Shown one piece after another: positions 1 to 44,400 of a stretch of 54,735 nt of DNA. Source of the stretch: Sphaerodactylus townsendi (Eukaryota); NCBI RefSeq assembly GCF_021028975.2, contig NC_059441.1, positions 5,961,266-6,016,000 on the forward strand. Reading direction: 5' to 3'. Below the pieces are notes generated by a model. The model worked only from the letters and a program-made list of their open reading frames with translations. It made no database searches and was not told the origin of the DNA. How positions within the stretch are numbered: position 1 is the first letter of the stretch; every line of letters begins with the position of its first letter. Both the position numbers and the translations under genes were made by a program.

Positions 1-16
1 GGGATCTTTTCTGCAG

Positions 17-3000
17 ACGGGGAACTGTACACCGGGACAGTGAGCAACTTCCAAGGCAACGAGCCGACCATTTCCCGGAGCCACAGTAGCCGCGTGGCCA
101 TCAAGACCGAGAACTCCCTCAGCTGGCTGCAAGGTGAGTGCCGGAAAGGAGGGCGGGGCGGGGGGGCAGCAGCCGCAGGAGAGCAGCCTGGAGCAGGAGG
201 GGGGGTACTCGGCTAGGAGGCCCGCTCGGTGGAGGGTCTGATCCGGCTCTTCCACTGACACACTCTTGGCTCCCGTGTCAATGAGGGAAGCCAGTGTTGT
301 TGTGGACGGGGCTGTTGGCACCTGAAGGAGGCCGGTCCTCACCTGCCTGTCTTTGGTGTGGCTGCGGCACAGACCCTTCGTTTGCGGGTTCCGCGTTCCT
401 CCGCGAGAGTCTCCCGCCCAGCGATTCCCAGGAGGACGACGACGACGACAAGATCTACTTCTTCTTCAGTGAGAGCGGCAAAGAATTTGACTTCTTCGAG
501 GACACGATTGTGTCACGCATCGCACGCGTGTGCAAGGTGAGGGGCGTGTGTGCTGATGGCCAGCAGGCGCTTTGGAGCTGGGCTCTGGTGGGGAGGGGGC
601 TTCTCTTTGGGGGGCCGGGCAGCGGGCCAAGTATTCAGGAACCCGAAGCTGTTGGTGAGGTGGAAACCAAAATGGAGGAGTTGGAGAGGATGCGGCAGCA
701 GAGGTCCGGTGTGAGTAACTCAGGCGCGTCTGGCCTTGGGTTTGAAGTGGATCCACGAGGATATTTCTGTGTGCAGCAGCAGCAGCAGCAGCAGCGAAAA
801 ACAGGCGAAGCTGTGCTTGGGAAAGGTCTTGAAACCCAAACTGCCCGGATGGCAGCATTCTCGTACAGCTTCAGAGCAGCCTCCTGGGGAATTGTGCGTA
901 CAGTTTAGCTTGCTGTATCCCCAAAAACTCCATACGAGTTTTAAGAAAGGTGTAGGACAGAGCAACCCGCGGCTCTTTCAGCCTTATACTGCAGCTCCGG
1001 TGGCCTGGAGGTCAGAGGGTAGCATAGGCGTGTCCCTCCAGGAAAGGTGAGTGGAGGGGCCAAACTGGAGGCAGCTCCACACGGAGCCACCTCTCCGGCT
1101 CAGTAGATCTTTGGGGCCATGGGAAATGGGTCCAAATGGCTCTTTGGGTGGTAAAAGTTGCTGACCCCTGGTGTAGGACAACCACAAGGGATCGGAGCGC
1201 TTTCCTTGTGAGGAGGGGCCATGAATCAGGCATTTCAGTTCAGGGGGGAAAACAGTAAAGGAGCAGGAATGTGAGAGGTGCACGAAGTTATCCCTGACGC
1301 GGAGGGGACGGATGGTGAGAACGAACGGTTTCTCCCCCTCACATAAAAGTCAGACTAACAGACATCCAGTGAAGTTGATGGCCAGAAAGTGACAGTAAAA
1401 AAGCCCTTCTCCTTTCAAAGTGGGATTTGCTATCAGAGGATGCAGCCGTGGCCCCACGTGGCCCTTCAGAGGGGGACACGCAGGACAGGTCTAGCTGAGG
1501 CTGCTGGCTGAAAGGACTCGGTGAGCCTAGTACATGCAGAGGCAATATGACAGAGAGAAATTTTGCTCTCTTTCTCACAATACTAGAACCAGGGGGCATC
1601 CATTGAAAATGCTGGGGGGAAGAATTAGGACTAATAAAAGGAAACACTTCTTCACGCAACGTGTGATTGGTGTTTGGAATATGCTGCCACAGGAGGTGGT
1701 GATGGCCACTAACCTGGAGAGCTTTAAAAGGGGCTTGGACAGATTTATGGAGGAGAAGTCGATCTCTGGCTACCAATCTTGATCCTCCTTGATCTGAGGT
1801 TACAAATGCCTTAGCAGTCCAGGTGCCCGGGAGCAGCAGCCGCAGAAGGCCGTTGCTTTCACCTCCTGCATGTGAGCTCCCGAAGGCACCTGGTGGGCCA
1901 CTGCGAGTAGCAGAGAGCTGGACTAGGTAGACTCTGGTCTGATCCAGCTGGCTTGTTCTTATGTTCTTATGTCAGCCAACAGAAGACCCTCTGTGCCCTG
2001 CTGGAGGGTCTTCCAGACGGACCATTTATCTGCAGCTCCCCCAAGTGTGCAGCTCTGAGTGAGCTGCTTCCACCCCCAGCAGATGCCTGCCCTTGTGGGG
2101 AGGGTGCTCCTTGGATGTGGGGTGGTGGTGAATGTCCAGCTGCCGGCTTGGGCCATCTCACTAGGACTGGCCTCCCTGCCTCTCTGCAGGGTCTGGGGCA
2201 CAGACCCTCTTCTCAGAGGTCAGAGGGAACTTCCTCCGGTTCTCCACCAGGGTCTGGCCACTGAGGAGAGCTCTTGGCTGAGGTGCTCGAGTGTGGAGCT
2301 CTGACGGGAACTTGTCCCCACCTTAGTTCCGATTTTACAAAAACCGCTCTTCGTTGCTGAACTGTGAGGTCGGAAGAGCTCTTATTGGGGTCCCACCGGG
2401 GCTCATTCTTTCCCGGTGATCCTGGGGGGGTCTCATGGGCTGTTCTTGCTCTGTCCCCCTTCCTGCCAGGGCGATGTCGGAGGCGAGCGGGTGCTCCAGA
2501 GGCGCTGGACAACCTTCCTGAAGGCGCAGCTGCTGTGCTCACGCCCCAGAGATGGCTTCCCCTTCAACGTGCTGCAGGATGTGTTTACGTTGACTCCTGG
2601 CGAGCGCTGGCTGGAAACCGTCTTCTACGGGGTTTTCTCCTCTCAGTGGTGAGCTTCAGCAGGAAACAGTGGTGGAGGGCCAGCCGTGGGATGGCGGGAG
2701 AGGCTGAGACACGCAGGCATTGTGGCGCCACACACACTGGGGCAACGGCTCCCAGTGGGCGGGTTTCGCCACGAGGGAAATCTGGGGCTCCGTTCTGTGT
2801 GCGGGCACCTGATCGCTCCCTGTGGGCCTCTGTTCCTCTCTGCCAGGGATAGGAAGGGCAGCGTGGGCACCGCAGTGTGTGCCTTCTCCATGGCTGATGT
2901 GAAGGAAGCCTTCAATGGCCTCTACAAGGAAATCAGCCGAGAGACGCAGCAGTGGTACACGGACACCCACCCTGTGCCGGAGCCTCGGCCTGGAGCGGTA

Positions 3001-6000
3001 CGTAGCTCTGGCAGGCACCAGGCCTCGGGGCAGCTCTTGCTGCTGCTTTGCGCCCCTGGCTTGCCGGTTGCGCGGCTGTCTGAGACCCTCATCCTCTTCA
3101 TCCCCCCCCACCCCCCCCACCCCACAGTGCATCACCAGCCGCGCACGCCACATGAAGATCACCTCTTCGCTCCAGATGCCCGACCGGGTGCTCAACTACC
3201 TGAAAGACCACTTCTTGATGGACAGCGCCGTTCGCAGCCAGCCGCTCCTGCTGCAAGGCCAGGCTCACTACCAGCAGATCAGCGCGCAGCGTGTCCAGGG
3301 CCTGCACCGCACCTACGATGTCCTCTTCCTGGGTGCAGGTGGGGCGCAAGAGTAGGAGAAGGGTCTTGGGGTTAGGATGACAAGGCCCTGGGGCGGGAGG
3401 GGTCTGGGAGAGGGGTCTTGCCACTGAAATGGCCACACAAACCCTGCGCAGAAGTCTCCCGAGAACTTGCTCCAAGGGCAGGCCGAGGTTCTGCCAGGAA
3501 CTGCCAGGGTCAGGGACTTCCCGAGAAGTGGCCGAGGAGCTCTTCCCCACCTGACGGGCAGTGCTGGACTCCTGGTGCTGTGTGGCACGGCCGAGGGCCC
3601 AGGCTCGCTCTGAGGCAGCTCCAGTTAGCAGAGCTGTTGGGAAAGCCTCAGCCTCCTCATATGCAGTGGTGGGATCCAAAAATTTTAGTAACAGGTTCCC
3701 ATGGTGGTGGGATTCAAACTGTGGGGTAGCGCCAATGGGGCTGGGCAGGGCACGATGGGGGCGTGGCCGGGCATTCCTGGGGCATGGCATTCCTGGGCGG
3801 GGCTGTGGCAAGGACGCAGCCGCTGCGCTGGTCCTTGGGTGGGAAACGAATGCACGCAGGCACAGGCTGCCACGCACGCCGGTGCACCTCCTGCTAGGCT
3901 GCTTCAAGTTCTGTGCGCTACTGCTGAGAGGAGGGGCGTAACTAAGGCAAAAATCATGTGGCAAAATCACCCATTAGTAACCCCCTCTCGGCACACACCA
4001 ATAATTAGTAACCTACTCTCAGGAAACTGTGAGAACCTGCTGGATCCCACCTCTGCTCATATGGCATACGATGGCTGCCAGTCAGAGGAGAGGCTGCCGG
4101 GCGGGAGGGACCAGGGGTCTGGGCTGCTCAGCAGCAGTTCTAGGGGCCCCTCAGCCCCACGCACACTTTCTGGGGGCTATGGGCTTGCAATTATTTCAAT
4201 CAGTCCTTTTGTTTTGGTGCCTTCATTCTGAGAGCTGCCCTGTGAGACCATAATAGAAAAGGATGAACATCGGAGGGAGCTTTTCTGGAGCAAGCCAGGT
4301 TACGGCTGGAGTTGCCAATCAAACGTCCCTCGTTGCAGTCAGCAAATGAAAATATTGCGGTGACCCCCTGGCCCAAAGGAGGTCCAGGCAAGGGGGCTCT
4401 CCATCCTAGCCCCAGACTGGGGGAAAATTCTGTTTGGCGAGACCCGGCCCCTGTGGGACTTACTCCACAGGGCCTGTGAGATGAGATGGTTCCATCAGGC
4501 ATAAGGTTGAAGCAGCTGCCGTTTCCCATCTGTTGGACTCTCTCTTTCCCACTTACCTTGACTTCCCTCGAACATAAGAATGAGCCTGCTGGATGAGACC
4601 AGAGCTCTCTGCTACTCACAGTGGCCTACCAGGTGCCTTTGGGAGCTCACATGCAGGAGGTGAAAGCAAGGGCCTGCTGCTGCTGCTGCTGCTGCTGCTC
4701 CTGAGCACCTGGTCTGCTAAGGCATTTGCAACCTCAGATCAAGGAGGATCAAGATTGGTAGCCATAGATCGACTTCTCCATAAATCTGTCCAAGCCCTTT
4801 TTAAAGCTATAAAGGTTAGTGGCCATCACCACCTCCTGGGGCAGCATATTCCAAACACCAATCATGCGTTGCGTGAAGAAGTGTTTCCTTTTATTAGTGC
4901 TAATTCTTCCCCCCAGCATTTTCAATGGATGCCCCCTGGTTCTAGTATTGTGAGAAAGAGAGAAAAATTTCTCTCTGTCAACATTTTCTACCCCATGCAT
5001 AGTTTTATAGACTTCAATTCTATCCCCCCTCAGCCGTCTCCTCTCCAAACTAAAGAGTCCCAAACGCTGCAGCCTCTCCTCATAAGGAAGGTGCTCCAAT
5101 CCTTCAATCATCCTCGTTGCCCTTCTCTGCACTTTTTCTATCTCTTCGATACCCTTTTTGAGATGTGGCGACCAGAACTGAACACAGGACTCCAAGTGTG
5201 GTCGCACCACAGCTTTATATAAGGGCATGACAATCTTTGCAGTTTTATGATCAATTCCTTTCCTAATTATCCCCAGCATAGAACATTTTAGTTAATATGA
5301 TTTTGTCATCACATGACATGATTTAGATTATGTTTTGAACCATTTTGTATTACTGTATTTATAAATTGTTGTGAGCCGCCCTGAGCTCACAAGGGAAAGG
5401 ATGGCAGATAAAACTAAATAACAACAACAACAACCGGACCCTGGGCACCATCCCAAAAACGCTCAGGCAGCACTTGAAACATTTTCAAATTGACAAAATC
5501 AACCTGTGAGATTCAGAAGGCAGCCCTGCTGGGATCCGCACGAATACTGTGCCGATACGTTACACCACCCTGAGCCTCTGGCTTGGACTTTTTCCTGCTC
5601 ACTCAGTTCACATTTTCACTGAGCTTTCCAGTACTACAACCCCGAGGTCTCTCTGTTTGCTTGCACTTAGTCCAAACCTCCTTAGCAGGATTTTTGTCCC
5701 ACTGTGCATCCCTGGGCCTCACCCTCGCCTGCTGGCTCTTCGTGGGCATTGCAGGAGAGCCAGTGGATTAGGACTCATGGAAAGTGGCAAATGGGCTCTT
5801 AATCCTGAACCAAAAAAAACGCGAAAAGGAAACCTTGCTGGTAAAAGGCGGCAGCAGCAGCAGCAGCAGCAGCAGCACACACACACAGACACGGTGCCTC
5901 ATGAGACGGTCTCTTTCGTTTGGTTTCAGCGGTGCCAGGTCCTTTGCATGTGTACTTGGGAGCAGGTCCGTGCACGTTCAAGTGACTCAGAGGAACACCC

Positions 6001-9000
6001 TGTTCAGCTTGTGTTCGACCTGCAAAGCGATTTGCTTCGACTTGCTTAACCTGCTGCTCTCATTTGTTTCCAAATTTTGTTCTTCTGCATTGTTGAGTTC
6101 AGTCAAAGGTTCACTTGCTGTCGGGGGACGTTTTAGTTGGTTGTACAATGAGATCCTGCCAATACTGTCAGAAAGCAGCAGACAATTGCAGGGGCTGCCG
6201 GCCTGCCCGGAAGAGGTCCCCGTTGGTAGTCTGAGCTCCTACGCCTCTAGCGTTCTGCTACTTCCTGGTTTCAGGGGACAGAAGTATTGGCTCAGGTTCT
6301 CTCCCCCTTTCTGCTTCTGGGGGCAGAGGGTGTGGCAGGGTGGGGCGTGCAGAGTTGTGCTGCTGGCAGGATGAGGAGCCGTGGGTGGCGGAGTCACGGC
6401 AAATCTTGCACCAGAGAGGTCCAGGGTCACCCCGGCACAAAGTTCAGCAGGTCCCCTTCGGCCAGTCCCACACTCAAAGCCCAGCCTGCTGTTGTGGGGA
6501 TAAAGTGGAGGGTGGAGAATCCTCGCTGCTGCCACAGAGAACCCCGTGGCTGAATTCCTTGGAGGATGACGAAATGGGAACTGGCTGCTAGCTGTGAAAG
6601 CAGGGCCTCTCTCGGTGCGTGTGCACACGTGCGCTTACCTTTTGAACAAATGCGCTGCGTTACTCAGAAGCAGGATCGTGCCTCCTTTGTACTGGTGCCG
6701 GAGGAGGTCTCGCTTTGCTGCACTGACCTTTGAGGAAACAGCTGCCTGGCTTCAGGCTGGGAAAGAGCCAAGGTGGGGGAGCCAGGCTGGGCCAATCCGG
6801 TACAGTGGGGGAGGGCTCTTCAGCAGCTTCCCATGTGTTTTGCAGGTGATGGACGGCTCCACAAGGCTGTGGCGATGGGCCAGCAGGCGCACATCATCGA
6901 GGAGATCCAACTCTTCCCCGTGGGGCAGCCTGTCCTCAAGCTGTTGCTGGACCCCACCCAGGCAAGGCAGGGGGTGAGGCCGGGGGGGGGGGGGGGCTCA
7001 TGCCAAGGCCAGAACTGGCCCCTGCTGGAGGGAAGACTAGAGGAAAAAACCGGGCATACATACAATGCCAATGAAAGCAACAGGTTGGCCAGACCCCAAG
7101 AAAACACTGCCCAGTGCAAGGAACAAGTGCAAAACAATAATTCGCAATAACAATATTCCTGGGTTACAGACAATAATAAGAGTCAATATCCTTATAGCTT
7201 TGCAACGTACAGTCCGCTTCACCACATGTAGACTACATGTGATTGAATGAAATAATAAAGACGTCTGGATATAGCCGGTTGACACAGAATAATACCATTT
7301 AGTTCCAGCATTCTTACATTTACCTGTATATTTGTACGTTGTAAAGCTTACCCACACCAACCTGTTGCTTTCATTGGGAGGGAAGGCTAGCCCAGGTGGT
7401 AAACAGGGAGCAGCAGTGGCATAGTGGCTAAGAGCAGGTGAACTCTGATCTGGAGGAACTGGGTTTGATTCCCAGCTCTGCCGCTTGAGTTGTGGAGACT
7501 TATCTGAGGAATTCAGATTAGTCTGTGCACTCCCACACACACCAGCTGGGTGACCTTGGGCTAGTCACATCTTCTTGGAGCTCTCTCAGCCCCACCTACC
7601 TCACAGGGTGTTTGTTGTGAGGGGGAAGGGCAAGGAGATTGTCAGCCCCTTTGAGTCTCCTACAGGAGAGAAAGGGGGGACATAAATCCAAACTCTTCTT
7701 CTTCTTCTAAAGCATTTGCCTCCCACAGCCTCTGAGGTGGGGGCAGGGAAGGGCTGCCAGGCTCCAATTTCTTCCTGGGACTGGACTCGGCCTCAGGTCT
7801 GCGCTGAGCGGCTTCTGCTGCCTGGCAGAGGGAGGGCTGCCTTTGGCCGCAGCGGCCCCCCTGCTCCACTCAGCCAGCCTCTCCACCCCTGCAGGGCCTG
7901 CTCTACGCTGCCTCCTATTCTGCACTGGCACAGTTGCCGGTTGCCAACTGCAGCCGCTACCGGAGCTGCGGGGAATGCATCCTGGCTCGGGACCCCTACT
8001 GCGCGTGGAGCGGAGAAGCCTGCCGGCCTGTGCCTCTTTACCAGCAGCAGCCTGCGGCGTAAGTGCTTTTTGGGGGGGAGGGGGAGGTTGCCTGTGGTGC
8101 TGGTTGCCCCCCCCCCCTCCAGATCTGAGCTTGCTCTGTGGTTTTCCTTCCTCGCAGGCCCTGGGCCCAGGATATCGAGACAGCTGCTGCAGAGCAACTT
8201 TGCCAGACCGGACACGAAGAGCTCAGCCAATCAACAGGTACAGAGCTGAGGGGGGAGGGGAGCAACAACCTTGGGGGGGGGAGGCTCAGAGAAAAGGGGG
8301 GCATTCCCCCCTTGCTGGCAGAGGGCCAAGACTTGCTGTCTCCTGCTTTCACCCACCTTTCCCCCCCCCTCAGCTGCGAAGTGCCAGCCTCTGTGGCTGA
8401 CCCCCAACGCGGTGAAGCTGCTCCCGTGCCCCCGCCTCTCCAACCTGGCCTCCCGCCAGTGGGTGCGGGAGGGGGCTGCCCTGAACGACTCCTTCCTGGT
8501 GCTGCCCAAGGGGGAGCTGGTGCTGGTGGGCAGCCCCGACCAGGCCGGCCACTACGAGTGCTGGTCTCAGGAGAGGGGCTTCCGTCAACTGATGGCCAAC
8601 TACTGCGTGAGGGTGGAGCTGGCAGCGCCCGATTGGCTCGTGCCGCCCGAGGGTCCGCTGGAGACCATCAGCACTTCGCGGAGCACCTCTTCCGTGGCGG
8701 CAGCAGCGGGGGGCATCGCGGCCCTGCTGGAGGGCAAGACCTACTGGACGGAGTTCCTGGTCATGTGCGTGCTCTTTGGGCTGATGGTGACGCTCCTGAC
8801 ACTCTTCGTATTGCACCGGCACCAGAACGCCATGAAGGGCTTCCTCAAGCAGGGCAGATGCAACAACGCCCACGCCAAGAAACTGTGCAAAGCAGGGCTG
8901 CCCACGGAAAGCCTGCCCCTCAACGGCACCAGCGCACCCAGCACCTTGCCAGACCACAAGGGCTACCAGACACTCGATGACAGACACGTGGCGAGCACCC

Positions 9001-9152
9001 CTCTGCGGGACGCCCAGGCGCCTCCCGGCATGGCCTTCCTGGAGGCCGACCAGCAGCCACGGAACGTGCACGAAAGCTTCGTGGAAATGCTGGTCCCTTC
9101 GCAGCGGCTCCGCGTGCGCCTCGGCTCAGAGATTCGGGACTCAGTGGTGTGA
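17..9152 (+). CDS. SEMA4B: Semaphorin-4B, 3' part (5'-partial; Sema domain C-half, PSI, Ig-like, TM, cytoplasmic tail)
   Basis: Exons with AG/GT borders: 17-133, 373-536, 2470-2648, 2847-2997, 3128-3338, 6846-6961 (GC donor; alternative GT at 6973), 7895-8058, 8158-8237, 8374-9152. Spliced frame gives [61 protein letters not shown] (PSI), [16 protein letters not shown] and C-terminal EIRDSVV (PDZ-binding), typical of SEMA4B. Confidence 0.95.
1549..1972 (+). mobile_element. CR1 LINE 3' fragment
   Basis: RT C-terminus [36 protein letters not shown] and (TTCTTATG)n tail. Confidence 0.9.
3664..4055. mobile_element. Non-autonomous hAT DNA transposon
   Basis: TIRs CAGTGGTGGGATCC / GGATCCCACCTCTG with a perfect 8-bp TSD CTCATATG (3656-3663, 4056-4063). 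Confidence 0.85.
4571..5280 (-). mobile_element. CR1 LINE 3' fragment
   Basis: ORF 4749-5279 has [23 protein letters not shown]...VQRRATRMI (CR1 RT C-terminus) and the same 3' UTR as the 1549 copy. Confidence 0.92.
7041..7376. mobile_element. Unclassified AT-rich insertion with 21-bp inverted repeat and 14-bp flanking direct repeat
   Basis: IR CCAATGAAAGCAACAGGTTGG (7068-7088 / 7357-7377); flanks GGAGGGAAGACTAG (7027-7040) and GGAGGGAAGGCTAG (7377-7390). Confidence 0.6.
7406..7708 (+). mobile_element. tRNA-derived squamate SINE (Squam3-like)
   Basis: A-box-like GTGGCATAGTGG, B-box-like GGTTTGATTCCC, (CTT)n tail. Near-identical copies elsewhere in the window. Confidence 0.8.
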
Positions 9153-10064
9153 GCAAGCAGTTCTCCCTCGGTGGATCCCTGGGGCTGGATTTCTAGTGCC
9201 AACTGACCCCCACCCCCGCTCTGAACTGAGCCCAGCACTGGAACAAGCCGTGGGAGATGCCCCCCCAGACTGTGGGGCGGCTGGATTCAAGGGCTGCTGC
9301 TGCCGCCACAGGAGGAGAAGGAGATGTACAGTCTGTTGGGTCCCAGCAGCCTCTTTTGCTAAGAGGGGCCGTTGAGGTTGCAAAAGGAATGTTTCTGGGC
9401 TGCACCTGCAGGCTGCAAGAACTCGGAACACCTGCAACCAGCCCCTGCAGCAGCAGCAGCAGCAGGCGACGCAGCCCCTGGCGGCCCCCACCCGGGCACT
9501 GCTGGTAGTGGGAGAAATCTGTCCAGCTGCAGCTATGGAGGCGAGAGAGAGGAGCCGATGCTGAAGGGAAGGCCGGGCATTTGCCCATCTGTTGTTGTAG
9601 AGAACTGGCCCTTCTTTGCGGGCTTGGGGGGGGGAAGTCCGTCTAGCCCTGTCTGATGACTCTCTTTGACCTTCCGGTTGTCTGAATGCCTCAAAATGTG
9701 AATTCTTCCTGGCTGGAGCCACTCCAGGGTCCCGATGCCCCCCCCCCCCTTCCCCTCGTTCTTGCACAAGAAGCTGTCTTTGCTGGGTGTGTTTACATAA
9801 AGCGAATGTGTGTTCTTTGGCAGCTGTGTAGGCCTGGCTTCGTTGGAGCCCAGCCCCTTGTTCATGTACCACGGGGACAGGTCTCTCTCCTTGCTCCTGG
9901 GCCATGTCTGGCCTTGCCCTTGAGGGCAGGGACTATTTCCTGTTTTGACATCTCCTGCCCCGCCCCATTTCTCAGAGAAGGGAAGCTCCACCTCCTGGGC
10001 TGGCTGCAAAGGGAGGCGGGGGGGGGGGCTGCTGTGTTCCTTGGGGTGGAGGGTGGAGACCGAC

Positions 10065-13953: not shown

Positions 13954-15072
13954 ATGGCGGCCACGGAGCCTCCGCCGCAGGACGGGCCCGGCGCGGGCGC
14001 GGAGGTCTTCTGCTACGCGCCCGAGGAGGACTTCGTCCGGGAGGGCGTCGAGTGGGCGGGGGGCGGCGGCGGGCCGTCGGCCTTCGACCGAGCGCTGCAG
14101 CGCAGCTGGACGGACCGGCTGGAACGGGGGCTCTTCCGCTACCGGCTGGGGGACCTGCAGACGCGGCTGCTGCCCGGGCCCGCCGGCTTCGTGGCGCAGC
14201 TGAACCCGCGGCGCGGCTCGGACCGGAGGCGGCCGCAGGAGGTGTGGAGCGTCCGGCAGAGCTTCGACCCGCGCCAGTTCAACTTCACGCAGATCCGGCC
14301 GGCCGAGGTGCTCTTCGCGCTGGGCCCCCGCCGACCCCCCCAACCCCCGGGGCCCCCCTCGCCGCCGCCGCCGGTCCTGGTGGCCATCAACGTCAGCCCG
14401 CTGGAGTTCGGCCACGTGCTGCTGCTGCCGGAGCCGTCGCGGGGGCTGCCGCAGGTGCTGACGGCCGAGGCGCTGCGGGCGGGCCTGGACGCGCTGCTGC
14501 TGAGCGGGCGGGCGGCCTTCCGCGTGGGCTTCAACAGCCTGGGCGCCGGCGCCTCCGTCAACCACCTGCACCTGCACGCCTTCTACCTGGAGCGCCCGCT
14601 GCGCCTGGAGGCGGCGCCCTGCCGGCCCCTGCTGCCCGACGCCGGCCTCTACCTCCTGCAGGGCGGCCCCGCGCCGGGCCTGCTCTTCTACCACGGCGGC
14701 GGCGGCGGCGGGCAGGGCCTGGACGAGCTGTCGCGCCGCGTGTGCCGCCTGACCGACCACCTGGCGCGGCACGAGGTGGCGCACAACCTGTTCGCCACGC
14801 GCGGGGCCGCGCCCGAGGGCCCCCCGCACGCCCGGCCGGGCATCCGCGTGGCGCTGTGGCCGCGGCGCGCCTGCTTCGGCGCCAAGGACGGGGCCGCCTT
14901 CAACGTGGCCCTCTGCGAGCTGGCCGGACACCTGCCCGTCAAGACGGCCGCCCACTTCGAGGCGCTCACCGAGGCCGCCGCCCTGCGCCTCGTCCGCGAC
15001 CACCTCCTGCCCGAGCCCCACTTCGCCCGGCTGCAGCGGGACCTGGTCGCCCTCCTCCGCCGCCACGAGTGA
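13954..15072 (+). CDS. GDPGP1: GDP-D-glucose phosphorylase 1 (HIT family), single coding exon, 372 aa
   Basis: Intact ORF with GLFRYRL, GFVAQLN, FDPRQFNF, INVSPLEFGHVLL, FRVGFNSLGAGASVNHLHLH (HIT-like motif) and FNVALCELAGHLP. Syntenic position next to CIB1. Confidence 0.95.
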   Translation: MAATEPPPQDGPGAGAEVFCYAPEEDFVREGVEWAGGGGGPSAFDRALQRSWTDRLERGLFRYRLGDLQTRLLPGPAGFVAQLNPRRGSDRRRPQEVWSVRQSFDPRQFNFTQIRPAEVLFALGPRRPPQPPGPPSPPPPVLVAINVSPLEFGHVLLLPEPSRGLPQVLTAEALRAGLDALLLSGRAAFRVGFNSLGAGASVNHLHLHAFYLERPLRLEAAPCRPLLPDAGLYLLQGGPAPGLLFYHGGGGGGQGLDELSRRVCRLTDHLARHEVAHNLFATRGAAPEGPPHARPGIRVALWPRRACFGAKDGAAFNVALCELAGHLPVKTAAHFEALTEAAALRLVRDHLLPEPHFARLQRDLVALLRRHE

Positions 15073-15394
15073 CCCACCTCCTCCCCCCCCACTCCTGCCC
15101 TGGCCAGCCGTGGGGCGGCTCCCTGCAAGGCTGGCTGCGGCCCGGAGTGGGGGCCTCGGAGGGGCACGGACAAGGGAGCTCCGGTTCTGCAACCAGGCAG
15201 GCTTGGGGGGGGGGGGGGTTCCAATCACGGGCGGGGTCTCTGCTGCGCCTGCACCTTTCATGTGGCATTTCACTGCGAGGGGGGGGAGGAATGGAGCCTC
15301 CATGTGCGGGAGCAGAAGCCGGACACAGCCGGCGCCGCCCGGATATCCGCCCCCCCTGAAAACCCAAGCCAGGCGCGCTCAGGCTCCGCTGGGA

Positions 15395-15560
15395 AAGTGC
15401 TGCCAATCGGGGGCGGAGCCAGCGCGCTACGGACGGGCCAATGAGGAGCGAGAGGTCGCTGGCGTCACGGAGAACGAGACGCCTGCTGGCAGCGAGCACG
15501 GCTGTGTGGAGCTCCGCCCCTCCCTGGCCCAAAGGGGCGGAGCCAGGTGTCGCCCTGGTG
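15395..15560 (+). promoter_or_regulatory. CCAAT/GC-box promoter, probably of TTLL13
   Basis: GCCAATCGGGGGCGGAGCC, GGCCAATGAG, CTCCGCCCC and GGGGCGGAGCC clustered about 350-500 bp upstream of the TTLL13 ATG. Confidence 0.55.
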
Positions 15561-15909
15561 ACGGCGTAAGGACGGGAAGCCCACGCACCGCCCCCCCTCC
15601 CCCAGTGTGAGCCGCGTGGCAGGTGAGGGGGCAGGTGGAAGACCCTCCCGCCCTTTGGCCCCTGGGGCACCTCCCGGGGGACCCCCTGGCTGGCAGGTGG
15701 CAACGGGCTTCTCCAGGGGTGCCCCCCCATCACAACTGGTGATCAGGGCGCCCTGGGAAAGATGGCCACTGCAAGTCCCCCCTTCTTTGCCCTGCCTTGG
15801 CTGTAAGCGCCTGGCTGACTTGGCCAGGTAGAGGCAGTGCTGAGGAGGGGGAGGGAGGGAGCAGCAGCCCCCCCCCTCTGTCTCTGTCCCAAGAGGGCCT
15901 GAGAGGAGG

Positions 15910-18810
15910 ATGAAGATCAGTGCAGAGGGAAGCAGTGACCCTGAGGGTGAAACTGGGGAGGAGGAGGAGGAGGAGGAAGCCTCTCCCAGGAAGCCACAGG
16001 GCCCCAGTCCAGGGCACAGAAGCAAAGCAGGCAGCAGGAAGGGCCAGCCAGGGGGGTCACCAGTCCATCTGGAGAGGATGGCTGAGGAGTGGCATGCCGA
16101 GCAGTCCAAGAGGAGGAAAAGGGAAAAGTTCAGGCCAGTGGTCTTCCCTTGCCCTGCATTCCCACGCTGGCAGCCCCACAGCAAGCTGTGGACTCCCGTC
16201 TCCTCATTGTTGGAGGTGGTTTGGGATTGCACCCCTTTCTTGCTGAGCCTTGGGGCGGGGGGGGGGGGCAGCCCTCCCTCCCTCCCTCTGGCTAGTGGCA
16301 GCTCTGTCCAGCCTCTGAACAGTTCCTTCCTTGGTTCCAGGCAGCTCTCCATCAACCTGTCCAGCTGCAAATACGAGAGCAGTAAGTCAGGTGCTTCTCC
16401 CTCTAGCTGGACAGCCCCGGGCAGGAAGGGGCCTTCCTGGGTTTCCCACAGTGGCCGCGGAGCGGACTTGGCATCCAGGCTGAGGAGGAGGAGGCATGGG
16501 ATCCCTGCCCTAGAGAAACAGTTCCCAGGGCCCCGCTAGGGATGCTTCTGCGGGGCACCCTGTTGCATTGACTCCGGTCCTGGGGCGTGGACTGTGGCAG
16601 CCCCCTCCTCCTGCCAACAGACAGGTAAATGCCTCTCCCCCTTTCGCTGCAGTGAGGCGTGCTGCTCGGCACTGTGGCCTGAAAGTCGGCAAAGACTAGA
16701 AGTGGACAGTTTACTGGACTGACTTCTCTGTCTCGCTGGAGCAGGTCATGGAGATGAGGAGGTTTCAGGTACCTGCTGTGGAATCACGGACGTCTCTAGT
16801 TTTGAAAAGCCTCCTGTAGCCAGCAGATTCTGAAATGCCACGAGACCTCCACTGCTCCCGCTGCCACTTCTCCTGCCAGCTCCTAGAAATTCCCAACACC
16901 AATCAGCACGCTTGCCGAGAAGCCTGTGGGCTGCCCCTACCAGACGTCTTTGCCTCTGTGAAGCCACCTTCGGGTGTCCTACCCAAACAAAAAAAACCAA
17001 TTGTGGCATCAGGTTAATGAATCAGTGGTGGTGTGTTTATTTGCACTCTTTGTAGTGCATCTTTCTCACAGGGACTCAAGCTGCATTACAGCCAACAAAG
17101 TGGAACATTCCATAAACAACAACATCACAACACAACACAAGCCTTTATTGGCATATAAAACAGGACAAAATTTTAAAACAAAACAAGGTTAAGAAATACA
17201 GTTAAAATTACTAATTTCCAGTATAAAATTTGCAACAGTTTCACAAAAGAGTACATCAGAGCTGTTCAGGAGATTGGGTATCTTATAACACTCATGCCAC
17301 TGAGAACATTGCAAGAAAATGGAATTCATGTATTTCATGCATATCTTATTGTATTTAGGGCATAGAAACAGAGAATAGTCAAGTATTTCAACCGTAGTCA
17401 TATCACATGAACAAACTCTTTTTGAACGTTCCATATTCTTGAATCTTCCCTCCAGCAGAGCTGATGGCAGCACATTACATCTTGCAGTAGCCGAGGCTCT
17501 CCTCTGGGTGGGATTAATCAGCAGACGAAGATATGCTGCCATAATTCCACGCTCGCATGGGATTAATAATGTAGTCAGAGAACAGGTTGTCTTGGCAGCA
17601 CGAGTCAAATTATGAAAATCAAGATCCAAGAGCCTATTCTTAACTAGTCTGAAGGCTTCCACCTTTGTGAGCATAAGGAGAGATTCCAAGGGGAAACCAA
17701 TGGCTTCAACCTTTCCAAAGATCAAAGTATACCATTCTGAAATAAAGTGATCTCATAACAGAGAGGGAATATAGCTATTGGATATTCCATAAACAGTGCA
17801 TTGGGATTGTAGAACTCTAGGACCCCCCCCGAAAGAACAGAAGACACACTAAGCAGTGCAAAAATTACATGATACAATCCTCCTCTGAGTAGGCTGCCCT
17901 GCTTTGACTAAGCGCATAGACCACAGTCCCTAATCATTTATCCAAGTAGGTTGAGGAACTATTTTGTCCAGAGCAAACCTCCTTTCGGTGCACAAAAGCC
18001 TTCCAGAGCCATCCAGTTGTCTCTAGATTGCAGAAAGCCCAGACAGGGAGACCCTTCCCCCGCCGGCCTCCTCAGACAGGCTGTGCAAACGGGTGAGGGG
18101 CGTCTATGGGAATCATGGAATTAGCAGTCTTTCGGTAAAGTTATATACAAAGTCATTCAGGAAAAAACATATAGTGAGAGGGAAACATGGGAGGCTGAAA
18201 CTGCAGGGGGCAAAATACAAATGTGGACAAACAAATCCCTGTAAACATTAATAGCAACAGGCAGGACTTGCAGGTCACATGTAGGGCAAAAATACCAGCT
18301 GAACCTTAGTCTGCTTGTCTATTTCAAAACTGCGTTACAGGTGGGCATTCCTTTTGCTAGATGCGCTGGCAGCACCACGGGGCAGCTCCCCTGCTCTTGC
18401 TCTGTTTCAGAAAATAAACCATTTCCCAGGCATGGCCGAGATTGCCGCAAGGACCTGCTGGCCCCCAGCCTCAGCCTCTTCCCCAAGGAGGACGGCATCT
18501 TCCCCTGCTCGTGGTGTTTGCCGGCTGAGTGAGTGGCTGACGTGGGCTGCCTGCAGCCCCAGCCCCCAGGAATCTGGCATAAAGGAGAGGGGGAGGCTCC
18601 CAGATAGCATGAGTTGCCCCGACTTTCAGGGCCCCTGTGGCTATGTGGTTTTGTTCCTGTGCAGCTATGGGGACTTCCAAGCCTACGGGCGAATGAGGAA
18701 GAACAGGACACACATTTGCAAGCCAGACAGCGGCTGCCAAGGACGAGGCATCTTCATTACGCGCAACCCCAAGGAGGTCAAGCATGGCACTCATCCAGCA
18801 TGCCAGCCCA
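15910..18810 (+). pseudogene. TTLL13: Tubulin polyglutamylase TTLL13, degraded and 3'-truncated
   Basis: Exon remnants 15910-16133 (acidic N-terminus, KRRKREK), 16341-16381 (RQLSINLSSCKYES), 16653-16768 (RRAARHCGLKVGKD*KWTVYWTDFSVSLEQVMEMRRFQ; TAG at 16697-16699), 18411-18528 (KINHFPGMAEI then frameshift to CRKDLLA...FPCSWCLPA), 18665-~18810 (YGDFQAYGR...ICKPDSGCQGRGIFITRNPKEVKHG). No downstream catalytic exons before NGRN. Confidence 0.88.
17115..17790 (-). mobile_element. LINE 3' fragment (RTE-X-like)
   Basis: ORF 17189-17725 has RRASATARCNVLPSALLEGRF...RVCSCD...FLCPKY (degenerate C-terminal zinc knuckle), followed by AATAAA and a (TTG/TTGTG)n tail. Confidence 0.7.
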
Positions 18811-18971
18811 CCCCCGCTCCGGCCCCGCGGCCCCGCTGCCCCTTGGCCAGCCTAGGTAGCCCCCGCCCGCCCGCCCGCCTGCCTTCTCTTAGGGAAGAGC
18901 CTGAGAGCCAATGTCCCGCTGGAGTGCCGCCCCCCACCCTGCCCTGCCACTTTTGTAACTGTATTAAATTT

Positions 18972-19456
18972 AGACGTCTGAGGGGGGATATGATTGAAGT
19001 CTATAAAATTATGCCTGGGGTAGAAAATGTTGACAGAGAGGAATTTTTTTCTCTTTCTCACAATACTAGAACCAGTATTCATTGAAATTCATTGAAAATG
19101 CTGGGGGGAAGAATTAGGACTAATAAAAGGAAACACTTCTTCATGCAACGTGTGATTGGTGTTTGGAATATGCTGCCACAGGAGGTGGTGATGGCCACTC
19201 ACCTGGATAGCTTTAAAAAGGGCTTGGGCAGATTGATGGAGGAGAAGTCGATCTCTGGCTACCAATCTTGATCCTCCTTGATCTGAGATTGCAAATGCCT
19301 TAGCAGACCAGGTGCTCAGGAGCAGCAGCAGAAGGCCATTGCGTTCACTTCCTGCAGGTGAGCTCCCAAAGGCACCTGGTGGGCCACTGCGAGTAGCAGA
19401 GAGCTGGACTAGATGGACTCTGGTCTGATCCAGCAGGCTCGTTCTTATGTTCTTAT
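18972..19456 (+). mobile_element. CR1 LINE 3' fragment
   Basis: RRLRGDMIEVYKIM...[16 protein letters not shown]1 3' UTR and TTCTTATGTTCTTA tail. Confidence 0.9.
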
Positions 19457-19711
19457 TATTTTATGTATTATTTTTACATATACAATATACAATACATAGT
19501 TTAGTTATTAAATGTATTATTTCCATCCGAATGTTTTGAATTTTTGGATGTTCCAGCCAGTGGCTCTAACAGTCAATACGGCGCCCGTTCCCCCCGCCGG
19601 CTCTTTCCCGTCTTCCGGGGCGGGGCCGCGGCGGCTCGGCCTTGCCTTTGCCCTCGTGTGCGCGCGCGCGCGCGCGCGCCGCTCTTCCGCCGGCTGCCTG
19701 CTTGGGCCGCG

Positions 19712-20280
19712 ATGGCCGCGCGCTGGGGGCGGTGGCGGGCGCTGGGCCTGCGGGCGGGGCTCGGGGCGCTGGAGTCGGAGGAGGAGGCGGCGGCCAGGTA
19801 GGGGGAGGGGAGCGGGGGGGGGGGCGTCTGAGGACCCCCGCGACGAGCCAGCTGCTCTGCCCCGACAGGTCCCTCCGCCGAGAGGCCCCGGAGGAGTGGC
19901 CGGTCTCCCGCCTGGCGCGCAGCTTCGAGGTGAGCCCCGACGTCGTCGCCAGGATCCTGCGGAGCCGCTTCTCGCCTTCCCCGCGACGGGCGCTGGCGCA
20001 GGACAGCCGGGTGCAGGCCCCGCGGAGCAGTGGCGGGGGCGGCCTGCCGGCGCCGGCCAGCCCAGGGCTGCTCCCCAGCCGTGCGGGGGTCGCGGCGCTC
20101 CTGGCCCCGGGGCCGGCGCAGAGGAAGAGGCCCGGCGGCGGCGCCCCTCCGCTCGCAAGCAGCCCCCCGCCGAGCCCCGCCGAGGATGAGCAGCCCCGCC
20201 GCCTGCGGGCTGTGCGGAAGGGCCGCGAGGTGGTGGACGAGGAGGGGAACCTGCTGTACAGGATCCCCCCCAGGAGCTGA
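19712..20280 (+). CDS. NGRN: Neugrin (mitochondrial ribosome biogenesis factor), two exons as assembled
   Basis: Exon 19712-19797 (MAARWGRWRALGLRAG..., Arg-rich targeting-like) and exon 19869-20280 (RSLRREAPEEWPVSRLARSFEVSPDVVARILRSRF ... KGREVVDEEGNLLYRI). These match the Neugrin core and the conserved C-terminal GREFFDSNGNFLYRI motif. Syntenic after TTLL13. Confidence 0.85.
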
Positions 20281-20641
20281 GGCGGCTGGGTGCCTGGGGC
20301 GATCTGGGGGGGGGGCTCCTCTGGCAGAACGGGCTGAAAGCCCCACCCCCGTGGCTGGCTGCGTAGACCTGCAGCCCTGGTGGGTGGTCGCCCAGCGCCT
20401 CCCTGCCACCACAGCATTTGACTTGGCATTTCCAGGCTGCCCCGTTGAGTCAGGGCAGGGGGGAGAGGACTTGCCCACATGGGGGGCCCAGGTTCTCTGT
20501 CTAGTGGTCTTCGTAACATTCTCTGGCCTGGAGGGCAGGAAGATCCGGAGAGGGGGNNNNNNNNNNNNNNNNNNNNNNNNNNNNNNNNNNNNNNNNNNNN
20601 NNNNNNNNNNNNNNNNNNNNNNNNNNNNNNNNNNNNNNNNN

Positions 20642-20732
20642 CCGCCGCCACCGCCGCCGCCGCCGCCAACAGGAGCTGCAGCGCCGCCGCCCACAGAGCG
20701 CCGGTCCTCCCGGCAGCCCCCGACGAGCCCAT
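20642..20732 (-). CDS. SEMA4B: Probable SEMA4B first coding exon (signal peptide), cut by assembly gap
   Basis: ATG at 20732 in a CpG island encodes MGSSGAAGRTGALWAAALQLLLAAAAAVAA, a signal-peptide-like sequence running into Ns. It lies head-to-head with IDH2, where SEMA4B exon 1 sits in mammals. Identity is inferred from synteny. Confidence 0.6.
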
Positions 20733-41450: not shown

Positions 41451-44400
41451 CTACAGCATGCTGTAATAGGCTGACTCGTTGGTGGGGTTCCCTCCCACGC
41501 CGTACTCATAGGGGTTCTCTTCGTCCTCGTAGTCCTCCATCTCCTGCGGCCCATCCAGGTCTGCGTGGTCACCGGTGGTCAGCTCCAGCATGGGGTCTGC
41601 AGGGAGGAGAGGGGGACAGCAAACGCATGGCCATGAAACCCTCCAGTAGGACTGTGCCGGCCTTTGGCGGGCACATCCCCAGATGGCCTGCAGGGGGAGC
41701 TGCAGCACAGCATGGCACGTCCCCGGATGGCCTGCAGGGGGAGCTGCAGCACAGCATGGCACGTCCCCGGATGGCCTGCAGGGGGAGCTGCAGCACAGCA
41801 TGGCACGTCCCCGGATGGCCTGCAGGGGGAGCTGCAGCACAGCATGGCACGTCCCCGGATGGCCTGCAGGGGGAGCTGCAGCACAGCATGGCACATCCCC
41901 AGATGGCCTGCAGGGGGAGCTGCAGCACAGCATGGCACGTCCCCGGATGGCCTGCAGGGGGAGCTGCAGCACAGCGCGGCACATCCCCAGATGGCCTGCA
42001 GGGGGAGCTGCAGCACAGCATGGCACGTCCCCAGATGGCCTGCAGGGGGAGCTGCAGCACAGCGCGGCACCCACCTTGGCTGTCCAGACTGACGTCCATC
42101 ACCCCGTGCTTGACCTTCATGTGGCGACTGAGGTTCCCCTTCAGGTTGAACTTGCTGGAGCAGTAAGGGCACTTGAAGGGCTTGCTGCCCGCATGCAGGT
42201 GCATGTGGCCCAGGAGGTTGTACATGCGGTTGAAGGATTTCCCACACACCTGGGAGGGGCAAAGAAGAGGAGGAGGAGAAGGAGGAAAGAGGGGCCCGGA
42301 CTTGCCTCTGCAGCATGCGGGGCTTCTGCCCACCCCCGGTCCCTGCAGCACCGGCTGGAGACCTGAGTTCAAATCCCAGCCCAGCAAGGCTCTGCGCACG
42401 GGGGGGGGGGGGGCGCACTGCGGACGATATGCACCCCAGCACGCTTGGGACAAGGGAGCTCATCCGGAGGCCAGCTGTCCTTTGCCCCGCCCTCCCAGCC
42501 CCAGCCAGCTGCCCATGCAGGCAGTCCTGTTCCCCACCCCCGCCTGGGCTGCTGCTTGTTGCAGGCCCGGCCCTGGCCGACTACCTTGCACTTGAAGGGC
42601 TTGACCGGCGAGTGCACAATCATGTGGGTCTTGAGCGTCTGCTTCTGCACGAAGGTCTTGAAGCAGATGTGGCACTGGTACGGGCGCACGCTGGTGTGGA
42701 TCAGCAGGTGCCGCTTCATGTTGGCCTGCAGCGTGAACTCTCGGCCACACACGTCGCACTTGAACTCCTTCACGCCCTGCAAGCGGCGGCAGGCACAGGC
42801 TGGGCACCAGGAGAGCCAGGGGGCTGCCCGCCCACCCACCCGCCGGACCTCTCCTTGCCCAAGGGCAGCCTCTCCTTCACGGGACAGCTCCCAGGGCAGA
42901 TGGGGCCCTGGGCAGGCTGCCCTGGGTAGGCCAGCAAGGGTGGGAGGGGGGGCACTTGTGCTGTTGAGCCTCTGATTTCAGGGAGCTGTGGGGATCGCTG
43001 CTGCCCTTTTGTGGGCCGGCCTTCTCCAGGGCTCCGGCAACAGCCCCCCCAGGCACAGAAAAGCTCAGTCCTCCGGCCCTTCTGGGGCGTGACCAGAACA
43101 CCCCAGGGCCCCGGGACACATGAAACAAATGGCACCGTCTGCTGGGCCCTGCGTCTCCCCCCCACCCACACAGCGCGGTCCCTCGGCCAGCCTACCTTGT
43201 GGGTCAGGGAGTGCTGCTTCAGGTGGTGGATCTGGCTGAACTCCATGCCGCACTCGGTGCAGACGAAGGGCCGCACGTTCTGGTGCTTGAGCATGTGGTT
43301 CTGCAGCTGGCTGCGGTAGTGGAAGGCCTTGCTGCACTCGGGGCAGGGGTAGAGGGTGGGCCCCTGGTGGGTGGCCAGGTGGCGCTTGAGCTGCGGGAGG
43401 GTGGAGAAGTCCAGGCCGCACTCCACGCAGACGTGGCAGCGCCCGCTCTCGTGCTTGCCCTCGTGGGCCTTCAGCTCGCTGGGGTAGGCGAAGCCGCGGC
43501 CACAGAAGCGGCAGCTGTAGGGCTTGACGTCCGANNNNNNNNNNNNNNNNNNNNNNNNNNNNNNNNNNNNNNNNNNNNNNNNNNNNNNNNNNNNNNNNNN
43601 NNNNNNNNNNNNNNNNNNNNNNNNNNNNNNNNNNNNNNNNNNNNNNNNNNNNNNNNNNNNNNNNNNNNNNNAGTGGGGGCAGGAGTGGGGCTTGACCCCG
43701 TTGTGGCCCAGGATGTGCGTCACCAGGTTGTACTTGGAGGTGTACGACTTCTCGCACAGGCGGCACTGCCAGCGCTTCTCCACCAGGTACGAGTCGTCGA
43801 TCTGCACGTTGATGTCCAGCCGGTCCAGCTGGGCCTTCTTGCTGTGCTCCCCGTGGGCCTCCGGCTCGAAGTCCAGCGGCTCCTGCCAGGCAAAGCCCGG
43901 CTTGGCCTGGTCCTGCTCCGGGGGCACGTCCAGCGCGTGCTCCCCTGCGTGGGTCAAGGCTGGCACGGGGGCCTGGAAGCCGTAGTCGCCAGGCAGGGCC
44001 TCCATGCTCTCGGGGCCGCTGGGCAGGGGCGGGCTGGGAAGGCCCTCCTTGCGCTCCCCAGGGGAGAGCTCTTGGTGCGAGGGCCGTCGCAGGCTCCGGA
44101 GGCACCGCGGCTTGCGGCTGTACGCGCTGAGGTCTATCATTTTCGTGGCACTGCTCTGGACAGCCTGCTCGGGGTTGGGCTCCTCCATGCAGGCGGGGGG
44201 GCTGGGAGGCTGCGCTTCTCCGTCTCCATTTGGGGCAGCCGACCCGGAGCCCCGCTCGTCCTGTTCCGCCTCGCTGTTCTCATGCTTCACTTTGGGCAGT
44301 AGTCTGACGGGCGGCCGCTTCCTCCGCCGGGCGTGCTTCCCGAACGGCGCCTCTGCCTCCACGCCCTCCTCCTCGGGAAGGTCCGCCTGGCCTTGGCCCT

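Follow-up and report, generated by a model that had tools for sequence, protein, structure and literature searches.

We found that TTLL13 of the gecko Sphaerodactylus townsendi has very probably been moved rather than lost, the DNA stretch analysed here (the window, 54,735 nucleotides of contig NC_059441.1) carrying the dead parental copy left by a duplicative relocation, with the survivor probably on another chromosome. A sequence-only reading of the window had placed a dead TTLL13 at 15910..18810 and had taken it for a unitary pseudogene, a convergent loss in a reptile. The window copy is indeed dead and cannot make an enzyme, but the loss itself was not borne out: there is a full-length TTLL13, XP_048363917.1, with all the catalytic residues that were checked, and a second, intron-bearing copy is found in DNA contigs. 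The feature does not end where that reading had put its end, a late-exon remnant from 18787 extending past 18810. The elements of the locus are as follows.

13954..15072, + strand: single-exon gene of GDPGP1 type, intact open reading frame of 372 aa (record P0122)
15910..16133, + strand: TTLL13 remnant coding exon 1, some 28 codons short of its length in other geckos, with a GC donor at 16134
16341..16381, + strand: TTLL13 remnant coding exon 2
16653..16768, + strand: TTLL13 remnant coding exon 3, which has lost one codon at 16684/16685 and bears the nonsense codon
16697..16699, + strand: the in-frame TAG, spliced codon 104, ahead of the TTL domain, with identical contigs in runs X1 and X5
18411..18528, + strand: TTLL13 remnant coding exon 4, with a 1-nt deletion after 18442, a 12-nt deletion near 18475 and several near-invariant residues changed
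18665..18787, + strand: 5' part of TTLL13 coding exon 5, truncated by a large deletion, from homologue matches
18787..18858, + strand: remnant of a late TTLL13 exon, corresponding to residues 750-772 of the intact copy and fused directly to exon 5
18893..18935, + strand: possible, tentative remnant of the next exon: AG after a pyrimidine tract, then a brief EEP similarity to the intact copy (weak, without a control)
19711..20280, + strand: NGRN (neugrin), the downstream synteny marker, Pfam PF06413 at 19870-20070 (record P0123)

The upstream reading frame at 13954..15072, which we take to be GDPGP1, shares 74% identity with the N-terminal part of a fused Gekko model and 55% with a fused hamster model. 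Such fused gene models place an intact TTLL13 between the same neighbours (GDPGP1-TTLL13 in Gekko kuhli, TTLL13-NGRN in G. japonicus, all three genes in the hamster), and the window is thus the ancestral TTLL13 site, with the remnant in the orthologous, syntenic place between GDPGP1 and NGRN. The remnant has kept its exon-intron structure there, with five exons and their splice sites as well as the late-exon remnant. Exon 5 alone is 91-95% identical to squamate and turtle TTLL13, and it also matches the solved TTLL6 (PDB 6VZT/8U3Z); a TTLL6 identity for the remnant was ruled out by the best hits and the neighbours, and a separate TTLL6 model exists. Chimeric models that join GDPGP1, TTLL13 and NGRN are found in several species (P0123, P0037, P0038, P0136). 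The one labelled Sphaerodactylus townsendi, P0123, strings together the GDPGP1 reading frame, exon 4 with its lesions, and NGRN, just as the window has them, and so conceals the pseudogene within a 561-aa 'uncharacterized protein'. No tandem repeats were found in 15000-20600.

The lesions read from the letters alone proved largely correct. The TAG at 16697-16699, said to replace an acidic residue, is in frame in exon 3 at codon 104, at a position occupied by E in 100 of 101 motif-matching proteins (123 examined). The 1-nt deletion proposed as ATT[T]GC near 18443 does exist, after 18442, but the missing base is a C and not a T, the contigs of the intact copies having an extra C. The absence of about four codons from the exon 4 segment was likewise confirmed, with 6 residues between KDLLA and P against 10 in all 107 matching proteins (123 examined). 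To these we add the one-codon deletion at 16684/16685, the GC donor at intron 1 and the late-exon remnant from 18787. As had also been claimed, no catalytic-core exons precede NGRN: searches of both strands of the window with 120 homologues, and with the same-species copy, recovered none. Core exons displaced within the window or lying behind the N-gap were considered and rejected, the other matches being to low-complexity Pro/Gly/Ala sequence or to neighbour genes in fused models.

The core went in one event. The sequence right after exon 5 reads, in another frame, as residues 750-772 of the intact copy, and the score of this match (75) is the best of 109,328 six-frame positions, the next being 48; it was reached by none of 300 shuffles. 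One internal deletion thus joined exon 5 to the late exon at about 18787, removing some 595 codons plus introns. The reading frame of the window copy ends at codon 104, and approximately residues 155 to 749 of the intact protein have no counterpart left in it. A contig of X1 (18513-18997) crosses the deletion junction with 0 differences, which shows that the junction is not a scaffolding join. Within 18770-18859 one frame closes with GQPR and a stop, as the Euleptes C-terminus does, and the frame that continues the match follows the intact copy; the remnant and the intact copy seem, from these frames, to share a change of tail frame that is older than the duplication. In a scan with the Euleptes tail, 18770-18859 was absent from the top three places.

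DNA contigs from 4 of 21 listed runs were compared with the window at 80% likeness; all were assembled contigs, whose depth served only to tell contigs apart and not as copy number. No RNA holder figured in the list of runs, and 11 rows with small or empty shares, X13 apart, did not enter the comparison. Three of the runs come from three separate studies, X1 from organism A (it may be the assembly's own source), X5 from organism B and X7 from organism C. The sequence-only reading had asked for the TAG and the frameshift to be confirmed in reads. The TAG is present in both an X1 contig (16581-16956) and an X5 contig from the other organism and study (16581-16811), each with 0 differences from the window. 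For the frameshift, the window-type contig of X7 (18408-18698) has no C after 18442 and is 12 letters longer than the window, and the window form of X1 over the frameshift was absent among the 32 pieces listed of about 191,700. We infer that the frameshift is common to organism C and that the 12-nt deletion is younger. The argument that several lesions in a region with no N-gap speak against sequencing error also stands, there being no N-gap in 15910-18810 (the nearest is at 20557-20641) and the contigs being identical. Sequencing error or assembly artefact as the source of the lesions is ruled out by the identical X1 and X5 contigs together with the contig that spans the junction.

Some irregularities of contig cover were seen. 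In X13 a single contig was seen at exons 3 and 5, the introns having none, and since contigs show presence and not absence this was left out of the dating; window-type cover in X7 was absent at the listed places from 16109 to 16630, likewise left unused. At 14600-15216, an X1 contig over the 3' part of the GDPGP1-type gene shows 5 letter differences and 5 gap positions, one of its insertions falling directly after the stop codon; these may be alleles or assembly errors in very GC-rich DNA. Very deep contig cover marks high-copy repeats at 18972-19456, between the remnant and NGRN, and at about 17135-17800, within intron 3.

The intact copy, XP_048363917.1 (P0121), is a TTLL13 protein of 843 aa under the same species label, and its record is not named 'low quality'. 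Both this protein and the remnant exons are TTLL13 by best hits and neighbours. Its contig has 196,596,289 bases against 28,331,578 for that of the window's gene, and the intact copy probably lies at a different genomic site, a placement taken from contig metadata and open to mis-scaffolding. The Pfam TTL domain covers residues 65-347 (E 5.6e-89), and across the core the protein gives a gapless alignment with mouse TTLL6. All 13 of the mouse-TTLL6 active-site positions that were checked, taken from published work (10.1101/2020.06.07.139295), are kept: K125, K174, C179, Q180, G181, R219, R241, T263, N264, D346, E359, H362 and S363. TTLL13 is classed there as an elongase by Q180 and H362, and the intact copy resembles the TTLL13/TTLL6 elongases in keeping the equivalents of Q180, H362, R219, R241, D346 and E359. 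With its TTL domain, Q180, H362 and the ATP/Mg-binding residues, it has the predicted make-up of a TTLL13-type elongating glutamylase; the surviving copy most likely supplies the elongating polyglutamylase and would be expressed and active.

The model of the intact protein begins at an internal Met, without the acidic N-terminus of other geckos, and over residues 1-480 it shares about 90% identity with Euleptes TTLL13, the C-terminal tail being different. A second model, P0007, is identical to it over the last 768 residues. Residues 9-63 of P0007 correspond to GDPGP1 DNA (window 14754-14946) read in three successive frames, which places a frameshifted GDPGP1 fragment upstream of the intact TTLL13.

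In an alignment of 19 sequences, with 149 columns shared with the remnant, three residues (Q18, F56, R67) are common to the remnant and the intact copy only, and there is no residue that the remnant has in common exclusively with Euleptes, Gekko japonicus or Paroedura. The tree split that groups the two has a support of 95/85, the remnant filling 29% of the columns. By the protein comparison the intact copy is thus the sister of the remnant, and younger than the split from the other species. The two have fared unequally since. Over the 149 columns the remnant has 16 private changes (both breaks included) and the intact copy 1, with 1 further column private in both; among columns at least 95% invariant in 230 homologues (of 293), 9 of 63 are altered in the remnant and 4 of 203 in the intact copy. 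At the protein level, these counts show that constraint was kept on the intact copy and lost on the remnant.

Is the function of TTLL13 nonetheless gone, the other copy being an annotation artefact, or silent and dying, with TTLL6 covering for it? We hold this very improbable. It is true that all the lesions at the old site were confirmed, that a TTLL6 model (P0246) exists under the same species label, and that the other copy is fast-changing and has a model without the N-terminus: it has 33 substitutions against 1 in Euleptes with Gekko as the outgroup, and 28-30 against 3-4 with four other outgroups, a comparison without a control gene for the rate of the lineage. Its private changes at otherwise invariant columns number 15, against 0-4 in 14 other squamates. 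Against a loss, two annotations give the same open stretch of 768 residues and the record does not bear the name 'low quality'; an unconstrained frame of 768 codons, at about 5.5% neutral change per copy, would be expected to carry some five nonsense codons, the chance of none being about 0.6% by a rough estimate. The distribution of private changes (16 to 1) also argues against it, as does their nature, 23 of 30 changes in the intact copy being seen in at least two of the 230 homologues, against 5 of 14 in the remnant (Fisher p 0.017). The raised rate would fit a lineage that is fast overall as well as relaxed selection or adaptation. Over residues 19-457 the intact copy has about ten times the substitutions of Euleptes TTLL13, and by eye, uncounted, several match the residue of mouse TTLL6.

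A second copy is also traced in the contigs. Window-type contigs differ from the window at 5 of 1977 letters in X1, 2 of 929 in X5 and 59 of 1503 in X7 (0.3%, 0.2% and 3.9%), and a second, intron-bearing copy differs at 152 of 1241, 92 of 835 and 119 of 1206 respectively (12.2%, 11.0% and 9.9%). The exon-4 frame of the second copy is intact in X1 and X7 (X7 record 29). On the assumption of equal rates, the duplication would be about two to three times older than the split between organisms A and C. At exon 1, shorter in the window by about 28 codons than in other geckos, the contig of the second copy is only 12 letters longer, so the exon 1 deletion is probably older than the duplication; the contigs of the second copy skip 17091-17779, so the repeat element in intron 3 is probably younger. 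One might ask whether the assembly has merely set apart two intron-bearing versions that are really allelic, or gametologues on sex chromosomes, or tandem neighbours, the location being known from metadata only and there being signs of a mis-oriented contig at 20557. A difference of 10-12%, introns included, in three organisms whose window-type copies differ by 0.2-4% is too much for alleles, however, and the duplicated segment includes a broken piece of GDPGP1, all of which makes this explanation extremely improbable, although a misplaced tandem pair would still be compatible with the differences seen.

A further copy of TTLL13 emerged from the same contigs. In X1 and X7, contigs leave out 207 nt at 16130-16338, which is precisely intron 1, and one side of the gap, 44 letters long, stops where exon 2 stops; joints at 18505-18665 connect exon 4 to the exon-5 acceptor at 18665; no joints for introns 2 and 3 were found among the 15 joints listed (148 more exist). 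The X1 and X7 runs contain introns and intergenic DNA, so the intron-skipping joints reflect an intronless copy in the DNA, and a third, processed TTLL13 is present in at least two organisms. No record of it was found in the best 120 of 2,769 matches among shorter proteins. At position 16743, the ancestral G is present in only one of apparently three X1 contigs, against all three in X7, a pattern that might stem from a CpG change arising in parallel in the processed copy.

Replacement of a parent gene by a retrogene is a known route, and the joints in the X1 and X7 DNA contigs raise the question of whether the survivor is this processed copy, the intron-bearing second copy being another pseudogene. 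The intact protein, however, is without two residues just before the exon 1/2 junction that both extra copies, the processed contig included, keep in their DNA. The best account of their absence from the model is a splice donor lying further upstream, and such a donor requires an intron; on this indirect ground we take the intron-bearing copy of the contigs to be the gene for XP_048363917.1. The intron-bearing copy also has an intact exon-4 frame, and pieces of the promoter region are duplicated too (joint 15594-15690); a retrocopy as survivor seems to us very improbable.

The history that we favour, a duplicative relocation with introns, would run as follows. After the split from Euleptes, a DNA segment that began in the 3' part of GDPGP1 and took in TTLL13 with its introns would have been duplicated to another chromosome, and with two copies present the one at the old site would have been free to decay. 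There, the frameshift common to organism C would have come first and the 12-nt deletion, absent in C, later; the TAG is common to organism B, and one large deletion took the catalytic core. Meanwhile the GDPGP1 fragment at the new site would have decayed, and TTLL13 would have remained open there under purifying selection. The third, processed copy also arose.

A unitary pseudogene is defined by having no functional copy elsewhere. The window copy is like one in its lesions and in the orthologous, syntenic site that bears them, but unlike one in that a putatively functional copy is present elsewhere. The gecko TTLL13 is best read as one more instance of alternate retention, a known mode of relocation in which a gene is duplicated and the ancestral copy is then lost; Cenp-C in the Drosophila montium group provides a described example (PMC12724597). 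As in that account, a conserved single-copy gene would have ended up at a new site, the ancestral site has lost it and the survivor keeps its functional motifs; unlike it, the present case concerns a vertebrate and a remnant in good preservation, a hitch-hiking fragment of GDPGP1 has decayed reciprocally, there is a processed copy and the rate of the survivor is raised. The label TTLL13P for the human gene does occur in protein names among the matches, but the human analogy is weak, endogenous TTLL13 having been reported in human keratinocyte cells, with a role in spindle-pole integrity (PMC12219730).

TTLL13 expression is described as low in most tissues (PMC9681853), and TTLL13 knockout mice are reported to have a phenotype in ILC3 development (PMC5550436). 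A true loss of TTLL13 would be notable given the ILC3 and spindle-pole roles, a move less so. A synteny-based screen would call the gene lost in this gecko, though it most likely survives elsewhere; in a survey of squamate gene loss (PMC13005343), TTLL genes are absent from the main text and TTLL13 is a bare row in supplement 1. Our literature search, with most subscription journals outside it, found nothing on TTLL13 in a gecko or lizard, and the works on TTLL13 and pseudogenes, judged by title and the start of the abstract, included none on reptiles. The value of the case lies in a young, well-preserved vertebrate relocation with reciprocal decay and with lesions sorting among related organisms.

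The raised rate of the survivor is open to tests for selection. One might speculate that the relocated TTLL13 was changed by positive selection and not by relaxed constraint, possibly as the new site is one of the large sex-chromosome linkage groups, LG1 and LG3 being described as sex-linked in the genus (10.1101/2021.08.13.456260); we regard this as unlikely. Were it true, the polyglutamylase of this lineage would be a re-tuned one, a live retrocopy might accompany it, and the stepwise death of one copy could be dated across a series of species.

The window also bears on the scaffold. A Sema-domain gene body occupies its start, 1-9400 (+), and at 20643-20732 (-) an ATG-led, signal-peptide-like frame points into the N-gap 20557-20641, head-to-head with IDH2. 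The first exon of the semaphorin, presumably SEMA4B in view of the human gene order, would thus be cut off from its body, and the contig that ends at 20556 is probably mis-oriented in the scaffold. Pfam scans of the neighbour fragments gave no match for 9 of 13; CIB1 and IDH2 were named through solved structures. Further along, at 41582-42580 (-), lies a C2H2 zinc-finger exon, which by synteny we take to be ZNF710; behind it, the list of open reading frames shows a tandem repeat with a unit of about 111 bases.
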